A stretch of 63,548 bases of DNA, the filler included, from a bacterium (lineage in GTDB: Bacteria; JAMORN01): the NCBI GenBank assembly GCA_027063545.1. It is 10 parts of 10 records of this genome, joined end to end, with 100 filler letters (N's around TTAATTAATTAA, not from the genome) between each part and the next. Parts side by side here need not be neighbours in the genome. Positions count along the whole stretch, not along the records: positions 45,342 to 52,605 come from JAMORN010000136.1; 9 more parts are not named here. One strand, 5' to 3'. Below, piece by piece: positions 7,554 to 61,992 of the stretch (positions are counted from its first letter, which is position 1; each line of letters begins with the position of its first letter). Under the pieces are notes generated by a model. That model was given only the letters and a program-made list of their open reading frames with translations. It searched no databases and was not told where the DNA came from. Position numbers and translations under genes: made by a program.

Positions 7554-7653
7554 NNNNNNNNNNNNNNNNNNNNNNNNNNNNNNNNNNNNNNNNNNNNTTA
7601 ATTAATTAANNNNNNNNNNNNNNNNNNNNNNNNNNNNNNNNNNNNNNNNNNNN
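7554..7653. other. Artificial contig linker
   Basis: N44-TTAATTAATTAA-N44, giving stops in all frames. Confidence 0.99.
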
Positions 7654-11575: not shown

Positions 11576-13693
11576 TTATGCTTCAAGTCTTACTAATTTA
11601 TCCTTATACTCCTCTGCCAGATATTCAATTAAATCTGAAGAGAATCTCTTATCTTCTATAGATAAACTATCAAGATTCTTTATATACACCCTTATAAAAT
11701 CCTTGATCTTTGCTATTAAATTTCCATCTCTTATTAGATTTATAAATCTAAATTCAGTAAGACCAGATTGTCTTACACCTGTTAATTCTCCGGGTCCTCT
11801 TATTTTTAAATCCTCTTCTGCTATTTCAAAACCAGAATTTGTTTTTTCTAAAATATAAAGTCTTCTTAAAGAATCGGGAGAAATATTCTCTGAGGTTATT
11901 AAAAAACAATATGATTCATACTCCCCTCTTCCAACTCTACCTCTTAATTGATGAAGTTGAGAAAGACCAAACCTTTCAGCATTTTCAATAACCATTACTG
12001 TTGCATTTGGCACATCAATTCCAACTTCAATTACAGTTGTAGAAACAAGTATATCATATTTTTTATTTCTAAAATCATTTAAAATCCTTTCCTTTTCTTC
12101 ACTCTTCATTTTTCCATGAAGAAGCCCAACATTAAACTCTTTAAAAACAACCTCATTAAGCCTGTTTGCACTTTCTATTGCACTTTTTAAATTTAACCTT
12201 TCATTCTCTTCTATTAAAGGATAAATAAAATAAGCCTGTCTCCCCTTTTTTAATTCTTGTTTTAGAAAATTATAAACTTTTTCTATTTTATCTGATTTAA
12301 TAACATAAGTTTTTACTGGCTTTCTTCCCGGAGGCATCTCATCAATTATTGAAACATCCAAATCACCATAAAGGGTTTGGGTTAAGGTTCTTGGAATAGG
12401 CGTTGCTGTCATATAGATCAAATGTGGCTTAAAAGGTGCTTTTGAATGCTCTATTAGTTTACCTCTTTGCTCAACACCAAATCTATGCTGCTCATCTACA
12501 ATTGCAAGTGCTAAAGAAGAAAACTCAACATCATCTTCTATCAAAGCATGGGTTCCTATAACTATTGCTGGATCTCCATTTTTTAGAATTGTTTTTATTT
12601 TATCCTTTTCTTTCTTTTTTGTATCTCCTATTAATAAATAAATTGGGAAATTTTTTCCAAAAAGCATTGAGGTTAATTTTTGATAGTGCTGACGAGCTAA
12701 TACTTCTGTAGGAGCCATCATAACAGTTTGATAACCAAAAGATGTAAAAAGAATCATAAAGAAAAAAGCAACTGCAGTTTTTCCACTACCAACATCTCCT
12801 TGAATTAATCTATTTACAACCTTTCCATCTTTTATATCTTTTAGAATTTCAGAAACAACTCTTTTTTGTGCATTTGTAAATTCAAACGGGAAAAAAGAAT
12901 ATAAGTGTTTAACATCATTTTCTGTTATATCTATTCTAATACCTCTTGATAATTTATCCTTCTGGCGTTTATATTCAAGTAAAAACATTAAAGGATATAT
13001 CTCCTCAAATTTCATTCTAAGAATAGCTTTTTTGTAATTTTCTCTATCTGTGGGAAAATGAAGTTCTTTTAAAGATTCATATAAGGGTAAAAATTTTATT
13101 ACCTTTAAAAAACTCTCTGGTAAATACTCAGTTATTTCATCCTTAACATAATCAAGGGCTGTTTTTATTATTTTTGAAAGAAATTTAGAATCTATGGAAA
13201 AAGATTTCATCTTATCAGTTATTCTATATACTGGATAAATACCTGTTTTCTCCTTTAATTCTTCATCAGAAAAAACCTTTTCAAACTCTGGATGAACAAT
13301 CTGCCACATATTAAACATATAATGAGCCTTACCTGATGCTATAATCTTATCACCTATTTGAAAAAAATTTTTAAGCCATGAGGAATATTTGAAAAATATT
13401 AAACTTATAAAAAAATTTTCACAATAAAGAAGTACTCTTAAACGTTTAGTATTTTTTCCAATCTCTTCAACTGACTGAACCTCTCCAAATACAGTTATAT
13501 ATTTATTCTCCTCTATTGTTTGATAGGTATCTAAATTAGACCTATCTATATATGTTTTTGGAAAATAAAGTAGAATATCACCAATAGTATAAAAGCCCAG
13601 CTTGTTAAACTGGGCTTTTCTTTTTTTTCCTATACCTTTAAGATTATCAATTGGCTCTTTTAAAACAGGATAAAACCTTTCAAAATAGAACAT
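11576..13693 (-). CDS. recG: ATP-dependent DNA helicase RecG
   Basis: QGDVGSGKT, DEQHRFGV.QR, TATPIPRTL, QLHQLRGRVGRG, DL.IRGPGE. Confidence 0.97.
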   Translation of the reverse strand: MFYFERFYPVLKEPIDNLKGIGKKRKAQFNKLGFYTIGDILLYFPKTYIDRSNLDTYQTIEENKYITVFGEVQSVEEIGKNTKRLRVLLYCENFFISLIFFKYSSWLKNFFQIGDKIIASGKAHYMFNMWQIVHPEFEKVFSDEELKEKTGIYPVYRITDKMKSFSIDSKFLSKIIKTALDYVKDEITEYLPESFLKVIKFLPLYESLKELHFPTDRENYKKAILRMKFEEIYPLMFLLEYKRQKDKLSRGIRIDITENDVKHLYSFFPFEFTNAQKRVVSEILKDIKDGKVVNRLIQGDVGSGKTAVAFFFMILFTSFGYQTVMMAPTEVLARQHYQKLTSMLFGKNFPIYLLIGDTKKKEKDKIKTILKNGDPAIVIGTHALIEDDVEFSSLALAIVDEQHRFGVEQRGKLIEHSKAPFKPHLIYMTATPIPRTLTQTLYGDLDVSIIDEMPPGRKPVKTYVIKSDKIEKVYNFLKQELKKGRQAYFIYPLIEENERLNLKSAIESANRLNEVVFKEFNVGLLHGKMKSEEKERILNDFRNKKYDILVSTTVIEVGIDVPNATVMVIENAERFGLSQLHQLRGRVGRGEYESYCFLITSENISPDSLRRLYILEKTNSGFEIAEEDLKIRGPGELTGVRQSGLTEFRFINLIRDGNLIAKIKDFIRVYIKNLDSLSIEDKRFSSDLIEYLAEEYKDKLVRLEA
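13591..13619. terminator. Intrinsic-terminator-like hairpin inside the 5' end of recG
   Basis: AAAAGCCCAG-9nt-CTGGGCTTTT perfect 10-bp inverted repeat with T runs on both strands, about 90 nt after the recA stop. Confidence 0.55.
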
Positions 13694-15139: not shown

Positions 15140-15239
15140 NNNNNNNNNNNNNNNNNNNNNNNNNNNNNNNNNNNNNNNNNNNNTTAATTAATTAANNNNN
15201 NNNNNNNNNNNNNNNNNNNNNNNNNNNNNNNNNNNNNNN
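15140..15239. other. Artificial contig linker
   Basis: N run with TTAATTAATTAA. Confidence 0.99.
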
Positions 15240-45341: not shown

Positions 45342-45758
45342 ATAAAAACTAATATAGGATTATCAAAGAAAAAAAGTGAAGAGATTATAAGAGAGTTAAA
45401 AGGGAGCGAATATAAATTAAAAGGAAATATAAGGGATTTAGCATTAATGGCTTATACTATTTATGCATATTTAAATTCTGATTCTTCTGAGGAAGAGGCA
45501 GTAAATAAGGCTATAGAAAATTATTGGAAAAGATCAGAATATGAAGATGAAGGTATAGATGAATTATCTTTAAGGAATATTATAGATAAAATGGTAGATG
45601 AAGGTAGCATTGATGCTCAAAAGTTATTAAAGGATTTTCAATATAGATTTGCCAAAAAGGCAATGGAGTTATCTGGGGGAAATAAAAGAAAAGCTGCAAA
45701 GATGTTAGGATTAAAAGACGGAAAAAGTATAGATAATTGGTTAAAAAATAAAATTTGA
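45342..45758 (+). CDS. Sigma54-interacting AAA+ transcriptional regulator with Fis-type HTH, C-terminal fragment
   Basis: Frame open from the contig edge with KGNIRDL (cf. WPGNIREL); AMELSGGNKRKAAKMLGL HTH. Confidence 0.75.
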   Translation: MKTNIGLSKKKSEEIIRELKGSEYKLKGNIRDLALMAYTIYAYLNSDSSEEEAVNKAIENYWKRSEYEDEGIDELSLRNIIDKMVDEGSIDAQKLLKDFQYRFAKKAMELSGGNKRKAAKMLGLKDGKSIDNWLKNKI

Positions 45759-45759
45759 T

Positions 45760-46335
45760 TTAAAAATTGTTTATTATTGTATCTATATCATCTTCTATGT
45801 AGCCGTAAACTTTGATACTTCCGTTATCTTCATCTATAGATATTTCTATTTCGTTATGTGGGGTTAAATCTTTTAAGGTATATTTAGAGGAATAAAAAGT
45901 TATTTTCTGATTTGTTGAGCCTATAATGCCACCATTTGTAATATCTCTTTTAGTTTCATTATAGGGTTCGCTAATGAGAATATCAATATAATTTAGTATT
46001 TCATTATATTTTTTTTCAACAATTTTTAAAGGATAGCCTGTATAAAGTATAATAGATAAATTAAGGTTTTTCACTTTTTTAGAAAGTTCTAGTATTTCTT
46101 TATATTGATCTAAAGGTTCTCCTCCTAATATAGTAATACCTTCTATATCATTTTTTATTTTTTCTATTTGCCTTATTAAATCTTCAATTTTATATAAATT
46201 TTTTGGTTTAAATTCCCACAATTCCTTATTCCAGCAGCCTTTACATCTAATAGAGCAACCTTGTACCCAGAATACAAATCTAATACCAGGTCCATAAATT
46301 AAACTTTTTTCTTCAATAAAGGCTATATTTAGCAT
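45760..46335 (-). CDS. NrdG-like radical SAM protein (4Fe-4S single cluster)
   Basis: GPG.R....QGCSIRCKGCWN (CxxxCxxC), GITILGGEPLDQ, YTGY, GSTNQ. Confidence 0.9.
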   Translation of the reverse strand: MLNIAFIEEKSLIYGPGIRFVFWVQGCSIRCKGCWNKELWEFKPKNLYKIEDLIRQIEKIKNDIEGITILGGEPLDQYKEILELSKKVKNLNLSIILYTGYPLKIVEKKYNEILNYIDILISEPYNETKRDITNGGIIGSTNQKITFYSSKYTLKDLTPHNEIEISIDEDNGSIKVYGYIEDDIDTIINNF

Positions 46336-46339
46336 ATTA

Positions 46340-46801
46340 TTAATAATTATGTCTAACTAAAATTAGTTTTATTTTATTCCCAACTTTTTTCTCCTTCACA
46401 GTATATCCTTTTTCTTTTGCTCGTTTGATTATTTCATTTTTTTGTTTTTCTATAAAATCTTTTTTTTCTTCTTCTATTTTTCTTAATTTTTCTTCAAATC
46501 TTTTTCGTTCTTCTTCTAATTTTGCTTCTTCTATTAATTTTTTTTGTTCTAAATATACTTTATTATACTCTTTTTCTAAGGAAGCTAAAAAGGTTTTATT
46601 TTCCTTTTCATGCCAGCTATCATATTGGTATATAAATTGTCCATTTTCATATAAAAACTTTTCTTCTATATACACTTTATTTTTATTCTCTATAATAAGT
46701 TCATTGCCTTGATCTATATATGAAATATTTAAATTATTTAATGCTTTTAATAGTAATTCTTTATTAATAAATGGTGTTGTATAAATTCTTCTTTGGCTCA
46801 T
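46340..46801 (-). CDS. DUF1257/Ycf35-like protein with coiled-coil insert
   Basis: MSQRRIYTTPFINKELLLKALNNL N-terminus and A...GYTV.E......IKL.LVR C-terminus; ATG 46801 lies 1 nt after the upstream stop. Confidence 0.6.
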   Translation of the reverse strand: MSQRRIYTTPFINKELLLKALNNLNISYIDQGNELIIENKNKVYIEEKFLYENGQFIYQYDSWHEKENKTFLASLEKEYNKVYLEQKKLIEEAKLEEERKRFEEKLRKIEEEKKDFIEKQKNEIIKRAKEKGYTVKEKKVGNKIKLILVRHNY

Positions 46802-46802
46802 T

Positions 46803-47009
46803 TTATTTTCTCCTATTTTCAATTTTTCTTTTATTTACAATATTATTTTTTTGATAGAATTCATCAGTTTTTTTACTCTCCAGCAGATGTAAATCTTTTC
46901 CTAATATATCATCTAATTCTGATATACACATTTCACCTTTAATTCCTTCTGTTTTTGCTATAATTTTTCCATCTTCATCAATTGTTATTATAATTCTTTC
47001 TTCCCCCAT
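46803..47009 (-). CDS. DUF2997 family small protein
   Basis: ITIDEDGKI...EGIKG..C.......LG.......KTDEFY; GAGGT RBS. Confidence 0.8.
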   Translation of the reverse strand: MGEERIIITIDEDGKIIAKTEGIKGEMCISELDDILGKDLHLLESKKTDEFYQKNNIVNKRKIENRRK

Positions 47010-47020
47010 AATAATACCTC

Positions 47021-48946
47021 CTAGTTTTGTTTTTTAGCAGATAATTTAGCCTTCAATCTTTGTGCTTCTTCTTTAGCTTCTTCATAATCTTCCCAGAATT
47101 CTATTTCTAAATATTTTTCATTTTTATTAGCATATAATATACCTATCTTAGGAAGAGACTCCAAAGATTCTAATTTTTCTTCTATATTTTTATCTTTTTC
47201 TTTTTTTGGAGTATTATTATTCTTATTACTTACGTTTTTCACGACCATTTGTAGAGAGGTTTTTTCTTCATCAATTTGTTCTTTATTTTTTCTATTTAGA
47301 TAATTTTTGGTTGTATCTATTTTAGTATTTAAATCTTTAATTTCTTCTTCCAGAGTTTTTATCTCTTGTTCTAATTGTTTTAATTTATCTTGAGGGATTT
47401 TATCTTTATTTTTTAATTCTTTTCTTTTATACTCTAATTTTTTTGTTATCTTTTCTTTTTCTTTAGTTAGCAGGTTATAATATAATTCATTTAAACTTTT
47501 ATTAATTCTTTTTCTTTCTTCTTTTGATTTTGTAGGAAGTTCATCTTTTAATTTTTTTAGTTTTTTTATAATATTTTTTTCTTCATTCAATTTTAAATCT
47601 ATAATTAACTCTTCTATTTCATTTAATTTTCTTTCAAAGTTTAGCTTAACATATTCCCACTCACTATATAGTTTATCTTTTGTTGAATTATTTGGAGTAT
47701 AGAATGGTATTATTTTATATCTATAAGTTATTTTAACGTTTTTCCCATCATCACCTATATTTTTAGGGGTATAATTTTCAAAAGAGTCTTTATTAATTAA
47801 TTCAGATAATTTAATCTTCCCTAAATCTACTTCTTTACTTTCTTTTATATTTATTACTTTACCATTATATATAATCTCTTTATTAATTAAGTTTTGTCTT
47901 ATTTCTTCAGGAATAAACTTATAAACATGAAATTTTTTTAATTCATTAAAAATTTTTTCAATCTTTTCTTTTTGATTATTATCTTCTAATTTAATAGCAT
48001 AAAAATAGTTGCTATTTTCTATAAACTGTTTAGGAAATATATAAATAAATTTAGAATTACCATAAAATATAGGAAGTTTTATTTTTTTCAATTGCTCATA
48101 ATCAAAAGCATATATTTCATTTTCTAAAGAAAGATTTTTTATAATATCAAAATCAGACTCTTTAGAGGTTATAATTGTTGTATTTTCTACTCTTTTAATT
48201 ATATCAAAAATAGGATCGTTTTTTTCTATTTTGGGGATATATAGAAAGGAGTAGTTTTCATCTTTATATTTTGAAAGTTCTTTTTTTACATATTCCATAT
48301 CGCAAAAGTCATTTTTATTGGGATATACATATATAGGTGTTTTATATTCTTTATTTGAGAGTTCTGTTATTTTCCCATTTATTATTTCATAATTTGTATT
48401 CTCCCAAAAGTTATAAGAGAAATATCTATGTAAATATTCTATTTGATTTTTATTTAATTCAATTATTAGACTTTCGTTAGATAGTGTTGTTAACGCCATT
48501 GGAAGAAAATAGCCTTTAGATTTTTTTTCTTTAGGATTTATTAAAATAAAACTACCTATAAACTTTTCTTCTAAATTTTTTATATCACCCGCAGTTTTTG
48601 TTCTTATAAATACATATTTTAGACTTTCTAAATATTTTTCATTTTCAATTTTATTTGTTATTAAATATATTCTATTTTTATTTTGAGGTTTTGATATATT
48701 AAATATAAGTTTTATTATACCATCACTATCTAATTTTTCAGTATATATAAGAATAGAGCTATTTTTAGCAGTTTCTAAATTATATACTAAATCAGTGTAA
48801 TTCCCATAAAAATTTTTAATATTATCAATAGTAGTTTTTGTGTTAATTGGATTATTTTTTAGCCAAAAGTTTTTATATTTGAAATTATAAAAATATAAAG
48901 TTTTAATTTTTTGTTGAGGAGAGATAAATGTTTTTTCTTTTTTCAT
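47021..48946 (-). CDS. Hypothetical protein: degenerate PLD-like N-terminal domain plus long coiled coil
   Basis: AKNSSILIYT / RIYLIT / GSFILIN / YF...FW pattern resembles a PLD fold without HxK; K/E-rich heptads in the C-terminal third; AAGGAG RBS. Confidence 0.7.
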   Translation of the reverse strand: MKKEKTFISPQQKIKTLYFYNFKYKNFWLKNNPINTKTTIDNIKNFYGNYTDLVYNLETAKNSSILIYTEKLDSDGIIKLIFNISKPQNKNRIYLITNKIENEKYLESLKYVFIRTKTAGDIKNLEEKFIGSFILINPKEKKSKGYFLPMALTTLSNESLIIELNKNQIEYLHRYFSYNFWENTNYEIINGKITELSNKEYKTPIYVYPNKNDFCDMEYVKKELSKYKDENYSFLYIPKIEKNDPIFDIIKRVENTTIITSKESDFDIIKNLSLENEIYAFDYEQLKKIKLPIFYGNSKFIYIFPKQFIENSNYFYAIKLEDNNQKEKIEKIFNELKKFHVYKFIPEEIRQNLINKEIIYNGKVINIKESKEVDLGKIKLSELINKDSFENYTPKNIGDDGKNVKITYRYKIIPFYTPNNSTKDKLYSEWEYVKLNFERKLNEIEELIIDLKLNEEKNIIKKLKKLKDELPTKSKEERKRINKSLNELYYNLLTKEKEKITKKLEYKRKELKNKDKIPQDKLKQLEQEIKTLEEEIKDLNTKIDTTKNYLNRKNKEQIDEEKTSLQMVVKNVSNKNNNTPKKEKDKNIEEKLESLESLPKIGILYANKNEKYLEIEFWEDYEEAKEEAQRLKAKLSAKKQN

Positions 48947-48958
48947 TTTTTACTCCTT

Positions 48959-50584
48959 TTATTTTTGAATGATTTCTTTAATAAAATTAGTTAATGTAGG
49001 ATCAAGAACTTCTAATCCATATTTAACTTTTGAGATATTTGTTGTTTCACATATTTTTAATTTATCAGGATTATTATTATCTAAATAGATAAAATTATTT
49101 AAAGAAGACGGAGATTCCCATATACTGTATTGATTTAGATCTTTAAAAAACATAAAATATCTATTATGAGGACCTAATTTATTGTTTTCTTTAAAGATAT
49201 CTTCGATATAAAATATCCTAACATTAGGAGCTTCACTTTTTACTATCTCTAATTTATTATTTTGTCCTTTAATATTTTTTAAAGTTATTAATGTTATATT
49301 AGATAAATTATTAAAATTTTTTATAATATTTAAAAATATTCTTTGTTGAATTTCATTAAAGACATATCTATCGTAATAAATAATATAGTTAATTGGGAAA
49401 TCTACTTTTCTTTGGAAGATCTCTGTCAGTTCCTCAAATTTATAGGTTTTGTTTAATTCCAAAGATATTAAAGGCTCTAAATAAGAATTTATACTAGAAT
49501 CATTATCTGGATTTAGATCATCATAGGCTACTAAATGAAATAAATGATCTATTTTATTGTGAGAAAAATAATTATCAATTTTTCTTTTTTTATAATCATT
49601 TTTAAAAATATAATCGTATAACTCATGGGAAAATGTACTTAATGCCTTGTTATATATAATATTTTGTAATTTATTTTCTACACCAATAGAATAAAAATTG
49701 CTTTCTAAAATATTATCATAAATAAAGTCAATAATTTTTTTTGCTTCATCAATATCAAAAGGTTTTATAGGTAATTTTTTAATTTCTATATAATCAAAAT
49801 TATAAAAATCATTTTTTAGTTCCAAATAATTATTCTCATGGTTATAAATAAATGTATCAATATAAAAATTTTGAATTTCTTCTATATCAATATTATCTTT
49901 TATTTGTTTTAATTTAACTTTTAATCTGTTAGACTTTTCGTCCCATAAATTATTAAAGAAATTTTTTAATATTTTTTCTTTATTAATATTTTTTAAATTT
50001 AAAGTTTCTTTTTTTATTTGGCGAGTTTCGATTTCCCCAGAAAAATATATTACTGCTGAATCATTAGAATCTGCAATTTCTAAATGAATTTCTATATTTC
50101 TATTTTTTTCATTTTTTTCATTTATCCCATAAATTTTGTTATCTTCGGGTAATATCTCTATTTTAGAAATATTATTTTTATCATTTTTCAATGATAACCA
50201 GAATCCTTCTTTTTCTATAGGTATATTTAGTTTTTGTATTTTATCATCATTTATGGGCTTTACTCTTTCTAAATAAATTACTTTATTGTTAAAAAATGTA
50301 TTAGGTCTATCATCTATATACCAAATTTTATATTTTCCAAATTCGATTTCTTCCATCATATGTGTATCAATAACTTTTTGCCCTTTTGAAGTAAGATTAA
50401 GAGAATTTTTTTCAATAAGGTCTAAATTTCTTAAATATTCTATAATTCTATTATTAATAAAATTATCCTCAAATCTTTTTCCTTTTAAAAATTTAACAAC
50501 ATCCTCTCTTCTTATATATTTTTTAACTTTCAATATACTTATAAACCAGGAAATTTCTATATTTTTTTTGGCTTTAATAATCAT
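48959..50584 (-). CDS. Hypothetical protein with C-terminal PLD-like (MIT_C-type HxR) domain
   Basis: YYDRYV...Q and PHNRYF...W...SSL motifs; N-terminal wHTH-like LTSKG; AAGGAG RBS. Confidence 0.7.
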   Translation of the reverse strand: MIIKAKKNIEISWFISILKVKKYIRREDVVKFLKGKRFEDNFINNRIIEYLRNLDLIEKNSLNLTSKGQKVIDTHMMEEIEFGKYKIWYIDDRPNTFFNNKVIYLERVKPINDDKIQKLNIPIEKEGFWLSLKNDKNNISKIEILPEDNKIYGINEKNEKNRNIEIHLEIADSNDSAVIYFSGEIETRQIKKETLNLKNINKEKILKNFFNNLWDEKSNRLKVKLKQIKDNIDIEEIQNFYIDTFIYNHENNYLELKNDFYNFDYIEIKKLPIKPFDIDEAKKIIDFIYDNILESNFYSIGVENKLQNIIYNKALSTFSHELYDYIFKNDYKKRKIDNYFSHNKIDHLFHLVAYDDLNPDNDSSINSYLEPLISLELNKTYKFEELTEIFQRKVDFPINYIIYYDRYVFNEIQQRIFLNIIKNFNNLSNITLITLKNIKGQNNKLEIVKSEAPNVRIFYIEDIFKENNKLGPHNRYFMFFKDLNQYSIWESPSSLNNFIYLDNNNPDKLKICETTNISKVKYGLEVLDPTLTNFIKEIIQK

Positions 50585-50587
50585 ATA

Positions 50588-52605
50588 TTAATCTCCTTTT
50601 TGAGAAATTATATATATACTATTTGCTAAATTTTTTAAGTCTTCGGATTTTGAATAGTTTGAAAAGTAAGTATGATTTCCTATTATAACTAATTGGTATC
50701 TTGCTCTTGTTATAGCAACATTAAGTCTATTTGGATTATCCAAAAATCCATCTTTTTTAGTTTGTACCATAGAGAGAAATACAATATCAGCTTCATGTCC
50801 TTGAAATTTATCTACAGTATACAGCATTATTTTTATTTTTCTTCCCAGTTCTTCTCCATATCTGAATATAGAATATGCATTAAGTCCTGTTAATTCTCTG
50901 AGTTTATCTCTTATTCTACTTTCTTGTCCTCGATAGAATGTAAGGCAGGCAATTGTCCAATCTTTATTTTCTTCGGGATAAGGATGTTGTAAGGCCCACT
51001 CTAGAAAATCTTTAAGTTCTTTAATTAATACTTTTATTTCTTCTTGATTATAATTTTTAATGGTTTCCCCTCTAACATCAATCCATACAGATCTTTGAGA
51101 ATATTTATTATAATTCCAATTTCTTAATATTTTTATTTGTTGAGGTTGCTCTAAATCTTTTAAAGCATTTTTTTCTTTATAGAATTGTTCACGAGGAAAT
51201 CGAGAAATATCTGGATGCATTCTATGTTGATATACTAAAATTTCTCTCCTTTTTTCTAAATCTTCTTTATTAAAACCTTCATTAATTACTCTAGATTTAT
51301 TTATTTTAATTCCTTGTATTCCATGGATTAAACTTTCTAGAATGGAAGGGAAGAATATAGCAGCCTTTTCATCTATTAACTCAATAATTTCTTTCTTATT
51401 ATATTCTTTATATGTTAAAGGAATTAATCTATTAATAGTTTCTTTATAATGTTTAATTTTTTTATTTTCACGAAGTCTTAACTGATAAATTCTATCAAGT
51501 CTCCAAGCAATTTCTTCAGCCCAATTTTTTTCTGTTAATAATGTGTTTATATTTTGTACTATTTTAAAAAGATTATTTGAGTTATTGTCCTTATTTTTTA
51601 AATATATTTTATTATAATTAAAATAATATGAAGTTAAATATGCATGTTTTGTTTCTTCCCAATTATTTTTTCTTAATATTATATGAGTTTCAGGGAGATA
51701 GTCTAAAACTTCATTAATATAAGCCTGGTTTATAAGAATTAAATCATAGGCAACTAGCTTAAGACGTTGGTCTGTTAGATTTTTTATATCTAAAAATTCT
51801 ATATTATCTATAACATAGTTTTTAGTATTTATTAAAGTTAAATTTTCAATAACAAGAATTCTTTTTTCAAAAATTTTTTCATGATACTGATTTTTATATC
51901 TATTTATATATTCGTTAAGAAATTCTTTTAAAGTTGAAGAGCCTATAGGAAATATAATTTTTAAATCATTATTATATTTAAAGATTTGATTTAGATGAAA
52001 GAGAAAAAAGATAGCTTCTTTTAAATCTTTATCATTTACAATAGTATCAATATTTGCTACTATATATTCTTTATTTGTAAATGGAGAAAGTTGCATAACA
52101 TCACCAACTAAAATCCATTTTTTAGCATATAAGGCTGGCACTAAAAATTCTTGAAATGTTGTTTTACTTGATTCATCTATTATAAGATAATCAAAAGAAG
52201 GTACAATTGGGGTATTAACATTTTTTCTACCTTTAAAATAAGGATGCTGTAGAATTCCAATAGTTGTCCCACATACTAGATTGGCACTATCAAGAATAAG
52301 TTTTAAATCTTCATCTGACATATTATTTCTTTCTTTAATATCATCTAATTGAAATTCCCTAACATTTTCACTAATTCTATTTTTATCACCAATTCTTATA
52401 GGTAGAATATTAAAATATTCTAAGTAACTTTTTCCATCTTTAAATTTATTCTTTAATCTTTCTAAAACATTATCAACAGCAACATGAGTTGAACCAGCTA
52501 AAAGAATTTTTTTTCCTTGTTTGATTAGTTGTAAAATAAGTTCCAATATAACAGTTGTTTTTCCCGAACCAGGAGGCCCTTCTAAAATTGCAAAATCAGG
52601 AGTGG
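50588..52605 (-). CDS. UPF1/DNA2-like superfamily 1B helicase (AAA_11/AAA_12), 5' truncated
   Basis: Frame extends to the contig edge with EGPPGSGKTT; STHVAVDNVLERL, IIDESSK, LVGD..QL.P, QHRMHP.I, TVDKFQG.EAD, NRLNVAITRAR. Confidence 0.93.
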
Positions 52606-61892: not shown

Positions 61893-61992
61893 NNNNNNNN
61901 NNNNNNNNNNNNNNNNNNNNNNNNNNNNNNNNNNNNTTAATTAATTAANNNNNNNNNNNNNNNNNNNNNNNNNNNNNNNNNNNNNNNNNNNN
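61893..61992. other. Artificial contig linker
   Basis: N run with TTAATTAATTAA. Confidence 0.99.

Follow-up and report, generated by a model that had tools for sequence, protein, structure and literature searches.

A seven-gene cassette combining a Mokosh-like helicase/PLD trio with a Ycf46-type AAA/radical SAM module: a candidate anti-phage system

The AAA protein Ycf46, the DUF1257 protein Ycf35 and DUF2997 make up a gene set of cyanobacteria and plastids, and a module of the Ycf46 type is reportedly a stress-induced operon in cyanobacteria. Mokosh type I is described as a gene for a COG1112 helicase with a kinase domain and a gene for a PLD nuclease (Millman et al. 2022, 10.1101/2022.05.11.491447). 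Here we describe a gene cassette with likenesses to both, found at positions 45760 to 52605 of a 63,548-nt window of DNA from a bacterium (GTDB lineage Bacteria; JAMORN01; assembly GCA_027063545.1). Comparison with related loci indicates that the six genes present in the window are best explained as the 3' part, six genes out of seven, of an operon that would be inherited as one unit. By analogy with Mokosh we lean toward reading the cassette as an anti-phage or anti-mobile-DNA system with an AAA/radical SAM control arm, a defense role that we infer from the features set out below.

The window, meaning the whole stretch that was analyzed, is made of ten contigs joined by spacers of 44 N + ttaattaattaa + 44 N, with joints at 7554-7653, 15140-15239 and so on to 61893-61992, and no feature is readable across a joint. 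The cassette occupies contig C136 (7264 bp, positions 45342-52605), part of a genome bin of 1.57 Mb in 355 contigs that is 83% complete. Open reading frame (ORF) listing and junction reading showed six minus-strand genes arranged head to tail, given here from helicase to radical SAM gene:

50588..52605, minus strand: Upf1-like superfamily 1B (SF1B) helicase, MkoA-like, 5'-truncated, 671 codons (Pfam AAA_11/AAA_12, PADLOC MkoA)
48959..50584, minus strand: 541-residue protein with a winged helix and a C-terminal PLD-fold domain (AlphaFold2 model, fold matches)
47021..48946, minus strand: 641-residue protein with a two-lobed PLD-superfamily fold and a coiled coil (AlphaFold2 model, Foldseek, VIA)
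46803..47009, minus strand: 68-residue DUF2997 protein (Pfam PF11211)
46340..46801, minus strand: 153-residue DUF1257-like protein carrying a coiled-coil insert (structure search)
45760..46335, minus strand: 191-residue radical SAM enzyme, like NrdG and the pyruvate formate-lyase-activating enzyme (PFL-AE) (Fer4_12, Radical_SAM)

An initial annotation had described these as six co-oriented genes with gaps of 3, 12, 11, 1 and 4 nt, several of them with strong ribosome-binding sites. Both statements were confirmed, AGGAG-type sites being present before four of the five internal starts and missing only from the radical SAM gene. The 153-residue gene begins with the ATG at 46801, 1 nt past the preceding stop, as read directly at the junction; the ORF finder's call of a TTG at 46822 was set aside in its favor. 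The reading frame of the helicase is still open where the contig ends at 52605 and the stretch is a chain of contigs, in agreement with the claim that the 5' part of the operon is lost there. The DNA had also been described as visibly AT-rich: its GC content is indeed 22.2% against 26.6% for the genome, and only 3.9% of 129 same-length genome windows have a GC content as low, but the effect is modest.

To collect relatives of the cassette, an eight-row alignment of the 541-residue family was run against a single genome for each species, and the resulting loci are labeled with L-numbers. Gene presence at each locus was mapped by tblastn and ORFs, and the denominators below are the loci that reach far enough. 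The 22 related loci belong to several orders of Bacteroidota, to Treponema and other Spirochaetota, and to a Christensenella. The full order is AAA, helicase, 541-residue protein, 641-residue protein, DUF2997, DUF1257-like protein and radical SAM enzyme. The helicase gene lies directly upstream of the 541-residue gene at all 22 loci and the 641-residue gene comes next at 19 of 19, followed by the genes for DUF2997 (16 of 17), the DUF1257-like protein (16 of 17) and the radical SAM enzyme (15 of 17); a gene of about 520 residues for an AAA protein stands upstream of the helicase at 15 of 16. Junctions overlap or abut in the relatives as well (for example, overlaps of 4 nt and 11 nt in L007). 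The arrangement is not due to chance, since the same gene order recurs at 22 loci of other genomes. The initial annotation had proposed a single functional module joining two arms, together with a search for conserved neighborhoods across phyla; the first proposal is supported by the frequency with which the DUF2997, DUF1257-like and radical SAM genes accompany the helicase and PLD genes, and the second returned one order in at least three phyla.

Of 400 other genomes sampled, 25 (about 6%) carry DUF2997, at 28 loci (L038-L066), and 13 of these 28 have a Ycf46-like AAA gene within 1.5 kb, often scoring 280-400 bits, with no helicase match. Such an abundance of Ycf46-type modules without the helicase raises the alternative that the Mokosh-like trio and the Ycf46-type module are independent systems that happen to be neighbors. 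In Capnocytophaga gingivalis (L026) the helicase and two PLD-fold genes do stand alone, bordered by a WYL regulator with a DUF1232 gene and, at the opposite end, by ruvX/dxs. L022 has no radical SAM gene; the two loci together imply that the arms are separable and able to work apart. Furthermore, a radical SAM gene of the cassette type lies within 1.5 kb of DUF2997 at none of the 28 loci from the 400 genomes, so the Ycf46 module does not generally come with the radical enzyme. However, the trio is nested inside the module, with the AAA gene in front and the DUF2997, DUF1257-like and radical SAM genes behind it, at 14 of the 15 loci covering the unit from end to end; this nesting is kept in the same order, with near-zero or overlapping junctions, in three phyla. 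Because chance adjacency would not maintain it, we regard two independent systems as very improbable and retain the reading of one seven-gene unit.

For the part missing from the 5' end of the operon, the initial annotation had suggested an AAA ATPase or a kinase, and the counts in the relatives agree with an AAA ATPase. In addition, the N-terminus of this AAA gene was located in the same genome: the first ~166 codons, with 47-56% identity to the relatives, lie at the end of contig C241, where the AAA start is preceded by thiG, prmA, a hydrolase gene and a DUF1232 gene. The ~2.3 kb left unassembled between C241 and C136 corresponds to the remainder of the AAA gene and the N-terminus of the helicase. 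The upstream gene of the relatives encodes a classical AAA ATPase of about 520 residues (PF00004 at 8e-30 plus AAA_lid_3 in L007), and PADLOC reports an IetA-like AAA match for all 15 upstream AAA genes. Close relatives of the protein, which share 68-89% identity in database matches, are annotated as members of the SpoVK/Ycf46/Vps4 family. We also observed a DUF1232 (YkvA-like) gene directly upstream of the cassette in two places, C241:3060-3449 and L026:6089-6439; it is present at no other locus and was not counted as a cassette member.

Two small proteins complete the likeness to the Ycf46-type module. The DUF2997 call of the initial annotation is upheld by the match to PF11211 (1.2e-5, 25.5 bits against a Pfam cut-off of 24.1), and a six-frame search of the bacterium's own genome places DUF2997 at C136:1564-1653. 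Gly22, Lys24-Gly25 and Cys28 are invariant, and the alignment has a mean column identity of 73%; within the cassette, DUF2997 ranks second in conservation. The DUF1257-like call fared less evenly. The Pfam DUF1257 model (PF06868) does not match the 153-residue protein at E <= 10 and reaches only 1 of its 15 orthologs (E 0.0073); predicted structure, on the other hand, supports the call, as residues 1-93 match a cluster that is 96% DUF1257 in an Atlas structure search (template-modeling scores 0.55/0.67), and its Atlas feature score against a cluster in which 44% of members carry DUF1257 is 0.89. From these modeled likenesses the term "DUF1257-like" appears fair, and membership of DUF1257 itself would go beyond the evidence. 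The spirochaete locus L022 encodes a much longer version of this protein (283 residues, L022:9252-10103), in which the coiled-coil insert is enlarged by repeats rich in Glu, Arg and Ala.

The cassette thus shares with the Ycf46/Ycf35/DUF2997 set an AAA protein of the SpoVK/Ycf46/Vps4-named kind, a DUF2997 protein above the cut-off and a DUF1257-like protein. Unlike that set, it is split open by three nucleic-acid-directed genes and ends in a radical SAM gene that the 28 DUF2997 loci do not have, and its DUF1257-like protein is interrupted by a coiled coil and goes unrecognized by the Pfam model.

The helicase provides the link to Mokosh. It matches AAA_11 at 2e-29 and AAA_12 at 7e-37, and its translation contains intact Walker A (GPPGSGKT) and DESS motifs. 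The PADLOC MkoA model (PDLC03920) matches the fragment in the window at 1.2e-76 and the full-length L007 ortholog at 7e-79 (264 bits), the match spanning the helicase core at roughly profile positions 480-1093 of 1112; the initial designation of an SF1B helicase of the Mokosh type therefore stands. The closest solved relatives of the L007 ortholog are IGHMBP2, Upf1, DNA2 and Sen1. Full-length relatives have 1037-1161 residues and carry an N-terminal region of ~380-460 residues; in the N-terminal 387-460 residues of the L007, L013 and L022 helicases no Pfam family was found at E <= 1e-5.

Comparison with the described Mokosh type I reveals further likenesses and several differences. Both have a gene for a COG1112/Upf1-like helicase followed by a separate gene for a PLD-fold protein, the match to MkoA is strong (1e-76 to 1e-79), and some copies of the cassette lie in defense-island neighborhoods. 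In contrast to what that account gives for Mokosh, the three cassette helicases have no kinase or other Pfam domain in their N-terminus, there are two PLD-fold proteins and not one, and these carry H-x-R or lack the histidine where an HKD motif is described. Moreover, the cassette's PLD-fold proteins, in the window and in the relatives alike, match no Pfam family and no PADLOC model, MkoB included, and four extra genes (AAA, DUF2997, DUF1257-like and radical SAM) surround the trio. Across the cassette, PADLOC names only the helicase (as MkoA-like), a generic AAA protein and a viperin-level similarity of the radical SAM enzyme. NCBIfam gave sub-threshold matches only, among them NF040671 (PLuB helicase-like protein) at 103.8-110.6 bits against a cut-off of 999, and none of its models matched the PLD-fold proteins. 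No description of the cassette was found in a literature search that did not cover subscription journals and bioRxiv supplements. Neither PADLOC nor NCBIfam names a complete system here, consistent with the earlier statement that the combination is not a named one.

Both proteins encoded next to the helicase had been called PLD-like, and structural comparison supports this for each of them. The 541-residue protein has no match in Pfam, PADLOC, NCBIfam or PHROG. Its AlphaFold2 model (predicted local distance difference test, pLDDT, 84.4) comprises a winged helix (residues 25-76), a beta-rich and helical middle, and a single PLD-fold lobe at residues 367-541. This lobe matches the PLD-like domain of MITD1 best (Z 12.5, root-mean-square deviation (rmsd) 2.8, 136 aligned), followed by the nuclease domains of SauUSI (Z 8.2), NucT, Zucchini, NgoAVII and BfiI (Z 6.4-8.2). 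Across an alignment of 34 family members, His473 and Arg475 do not vary, and visual inspection showed the same His-x-Arg spelling in five longer members that are only distantly related. A regular expression for H-x-[KR]-x4-[DEN] had no occurrence in either PLD-fold protein. From the model and these residues, the C-terminal domain is likely a phosphodiesterase, or at least a head that binds phosphate or nucleic acid.

The 541-residue family is rare. An exhaustive HMMER search of 1.84 billion proteins returned 85 representative clusters, mostly of ~500 residues, and 60 other sampled genomes contained no credible match, only two at chance level (E ~0.003). In a word-indexed protein search, both the sequence and a 34-row profile retrieved the query alone, probably because the list of candidates filled up with AT-rich, low-complexity words. 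A 14,333-bp contig is listed as carrying an identical protein, and the metagenome scan gave back only the same 7264-bp contig.

The 641-residue protein likewise matched no family in the libraries searched (Pfam, PADLOC, NCBIfam and PHROG). Its AlphaFold2 model (pLDDT 81.5) shows a PLD body at residues 35-360, a beta domain, a coiled coil at ~425-560 and a conserved C-terminal domain of ~40 residues. The body aligns with vaccinia F13 (Z 20.6, rmsd 3.7, 276 aligned), PLD3 (Z 19.3; PLD3/4 at about Z 19) and PPK1 (Z 18) in Foldseek and VIA comparisons, and the first lobe alone aligns with Nuc (Z 13.8). At the place of the first HKD motif, 14 orthologs have Leu-Ile-Arg and then Gly-Ser-Phe-Ile-Leu-x-Asn, and inspection of the same alignment by eye found no conserved histidine at either HKD position. 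Because neither lobe keeps this histidine, the protein is likely a pseudo-enzyme, a scaffold or a binding module. A glycine in its C-terminal domain was considered as a glycyl-radical site and dropped, since L026, a locus without the radical SAM gene, has this domain as well.

The last gene encodes a radical SAM protein (Fer4_12 1.2e-32; Radical_SAM PF04055 8e-11) that public databases assign to ribonucleotide reduction. Its orthologs are annotated as anaerobic ribonucleotide reductase (RNR) activating proteins, whereas the other cassette genes are called "hypothetical" or "AAA domain-containing"; PHROG labels it an anaerobic RNR small subunit (1.4e-35), and its best family match is NrdG (TIGR02491, 9.5e-31). 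It also resembles NrdG and PFL-AE in its small size, in its profile matches (1e-30 to NrdG, 2e-15 to PFL-AE), in a CX3CX2C motif at residue 27 (C27, C31, C34) and in a G71-G72-E73-P74 motif; both motifs are invariant in 14 orthologs. These likenesses would fit a plain NrdG, the activase of an anaerobic RNR, with the rest of the cassette unrelated to it. However, the score of 106.8 bits falls below the curated NrdG cut-off of 126.1, the enzyme has an extra conserved C-terminal extension of ~45 residues, and the operon contains no glycyl-radical enzyme. At the 15 loci with the radical SAM gene, no nrdD adjoins it, and the gene holds a fixed place behind the DUF1257-like gene. Furthermore, the nrdD of this genome is split over the ends of two other contigs, C64 and C65, and is followed on C65 by a different activase-like gene at C65:769-990, the two genes together occupying C64:6955-8352 and C65:1-990. 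Because NrdD has this adjoining activase-like gene of its own, the cassette enzyme is not the housekeeping NrdG; in our reading the public label is wrong, and a simple RNR activase with unrelated neighbors is extremely improbable.

Complex prediction offers a different partner. The radical SAM enzyme paired with the DUF1257-like and DUF2997 proteins scored 0.49, against 0.02 for the best of three controls, and the score fell to 0.02 when the DUF1257-like chain was replaced. The mark used in this prediction is reached by 116 of 157 solved complexes and by 2 of 215 mismatched pairs, and among those reaching it, only 18 of the 157 complexes score 0.60 or lower, as does the pair here, together with both of the mismatches that passed. 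Contacts are shared between runs to at least 36%, and partner pLDDT is at least 81. The prediction gives weak support to the complex and is compatible with a radical SAM enzyme that may act on a protein target within its own arm.

These observations can be arranged into a tentative scheme of two arms. The first would be Mokosh-like: the helicase, with its intact ATPase motifs, would sense or translocate on foreign nucleic acid and would work with the winged-helix protein, whose PLD domain keeps the His-x-Arg site, while the two-lobed PLD protein with its coiled coil would serve as a scaffold or pseudo-enzyme. The second would be a Ycf46-type module of the AAA protein, DUF2997 and the DUF1257-like protein, plus the radical SAM enzyme, which may act on the DUF1257-like/DUF2997 pair. 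The AAA motor would remodel the complex, and the second arm would gate or arm the first. The gene order, the identities of the domains, the conserved catalytic motifs and the joint occurrence in several phyla are observed; in this scheme we infer the identity of the effector and the target of the radical enzyme, as well as the direction of control. A more specific version, in which the NrdG-like enzyme puts a glycyl-type or other radical mark on the DUF1257-like and DUF2997 proteins and the AAA protein reads the mark and activates the helicase/PLD machine, is distinctly unlikely.

Several properties of the cassette suggest a role in defense: the pairing of a helicase with PLD-fold proteins, its patchy spread across phyla, its varied chromosomal sites, its low GC content and the genes found beside some copies. 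Strong matches to defense proteins occur within ~7 kb at 5 of the 15 loci whose flanks were tested with PADLOC, a count to be taken as suggestive only. At L025 a prokaryotic Argonaute (8e-231) and a helical restriction endonuclease partner lie directly upstream of the AAA gene (L025:1731-4847), and at L007 the cassette is immediately preceded by genes for a DnaB-C-like ATPase and a retron-type reverse transcriptase (1.6e-97; L007:2662-5003). L006 has a 453-residue radical SAM protein matching PDC-M51A (7e-128) and an HTH_3 protein upstream (689-2459) and three tandem Uma2/PDC-S03 genes downstream (11973-13611); ZorA (5.5e-35) is found near the cassette at L011, and at L019 a caspase-like protein accompanies an IetA-like ATPase (2e-38). 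The rates of change point the same way. Mean pairwise identity over seven loci is 80% for the AAA protein, 74% for DUF2997, 63% for the helicase, 61% for the radical SAM enzyme, 58% for the DUF1257-like protein, 45% for the 541-residue protein and 44% for the 641-residue protein, so the two PLD-fold proteins change fastest. Target-facing parts of conflict systems often evolve fast, and the combination of conserved motors with fast-evolving PLD-fold proteins would also favor defense.

In addition to the L026, L022 and DUF2997 loci already described and the missing histidines of the 641-residue protein, a number of findings weigh against a defense system built in this way. The flanks of the other 10 of the 15 loci contain housekeeping genes or weak matches only, and PADLOC has no match for the remaining four of the seven proteins, here or in the relatives. 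Among 19 complete orthologs of the 541-residue protein, 5 are short (328-357 residues) and end before the PLD domain; the His-x-Arg domain is therefore not a universal effector. The helicase is split into two pieces or lacks its start at 3 of 16 loci (L011, L021 and L025). Finally, the AAA protein keeps intact Walker A and B motifs, and its pore-loop position reads Gly-Ile-Val-Gly; the usual AAA pore loop is aromatic-hydrophobic-Gly, and unfolding activity is therefore uncertain. In a viral contig collection, 0 of 70 candidate stretches contained a relative of the 541-residue family.

This last result bears equally on whether the cassette is cargo of a mobile element and serves that element through maintenance, exclusion of rivals or counter-defense. 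A GC content low relative to the host and a spread across phyla would be expected of such cargo. A Pfam scan of 68 proteins, made up of 64 ORFs from the flanks and four N-terminal segments of cassette proteins, however, detected no integrase, transposase, conjugation or phage structural family at E <= 1e-5, and the sole plasmid-type match in the flanks is a PcfJ-like fragment at L011. Together with the lack of a relative in the viral collection, and with housekeeping flanks that vary by genome and include gyrB, relA/spoT, prs, dxs and ruvX, this makes service to a mobile element improbable.

The same housekeeping flanks would suit a role in cellular stress or quality control, in which a Ycf46-type module and a Upf1-like helicase carry out surveillance of RNA or ribonucleoprotein and the PLD-fold proteins act as RNA-binding or RNA-processing factors. 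Also on this side are the strong conservation of the AAA protein (80% mean identity across phyla, 68-89% in database matches), the occurrence of DUF2997 and an AAA gene together without the helicase, the position of the operon here behind thiG, prmA and a hydrolase gene, and the identity of the helicase's solved relatives as RNA-surveillance helicases. Against it stand the patchy distribution (85 clusters in 1.84 billion proteins and nothing credible in 60 genomes), a chromosomal site that differs in every genome, the fast evolution of the PLD-fold proteins, a GC content below that of the host genome and the strong defense neighbors at 5 of 15 loci. On balance, we consider a stress role unlikely and favor a Mokosh-like defense cassette.

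If the cassette does defend against phages, it would add a protein-remodeling ATPase and a radical enzyme to the Mokosh idea; to our knowledge, neither has a described role in the Mokosh family. It ties the Ycf46, Ycf35 and DUF2997 proteins to nucleic-acid-directed partners. Should the radical-gating version prove true, a protein radical would act as the switch of an immune system, and the cassette would give a first functional handle on Ycf46, Ycf35 and DUF2997, which are conserved from bacteria to plastids.

The remainder of the contig contains one other gene (45447-45758, plus strand), which encodes a 103-residue protein with a C-terminal Fis-type HTH_8 domain (E 1.1e-4) and meets the radical SAM gene tail to tail, their stop codons 1 nt apart. 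It was rejected as a cassette member, having no counterpart at any of the 22 related loci. The earlier remark that the contig carries no housekeeping gene is thus true and uninformative, as the HTH_8 gene is the only other gene on it. Rfam had no match anywhere on the cassette contig, and a promoter scan stayed at background level (62 found, 59 expected). The sole terminator-like site lies beyond the operon.

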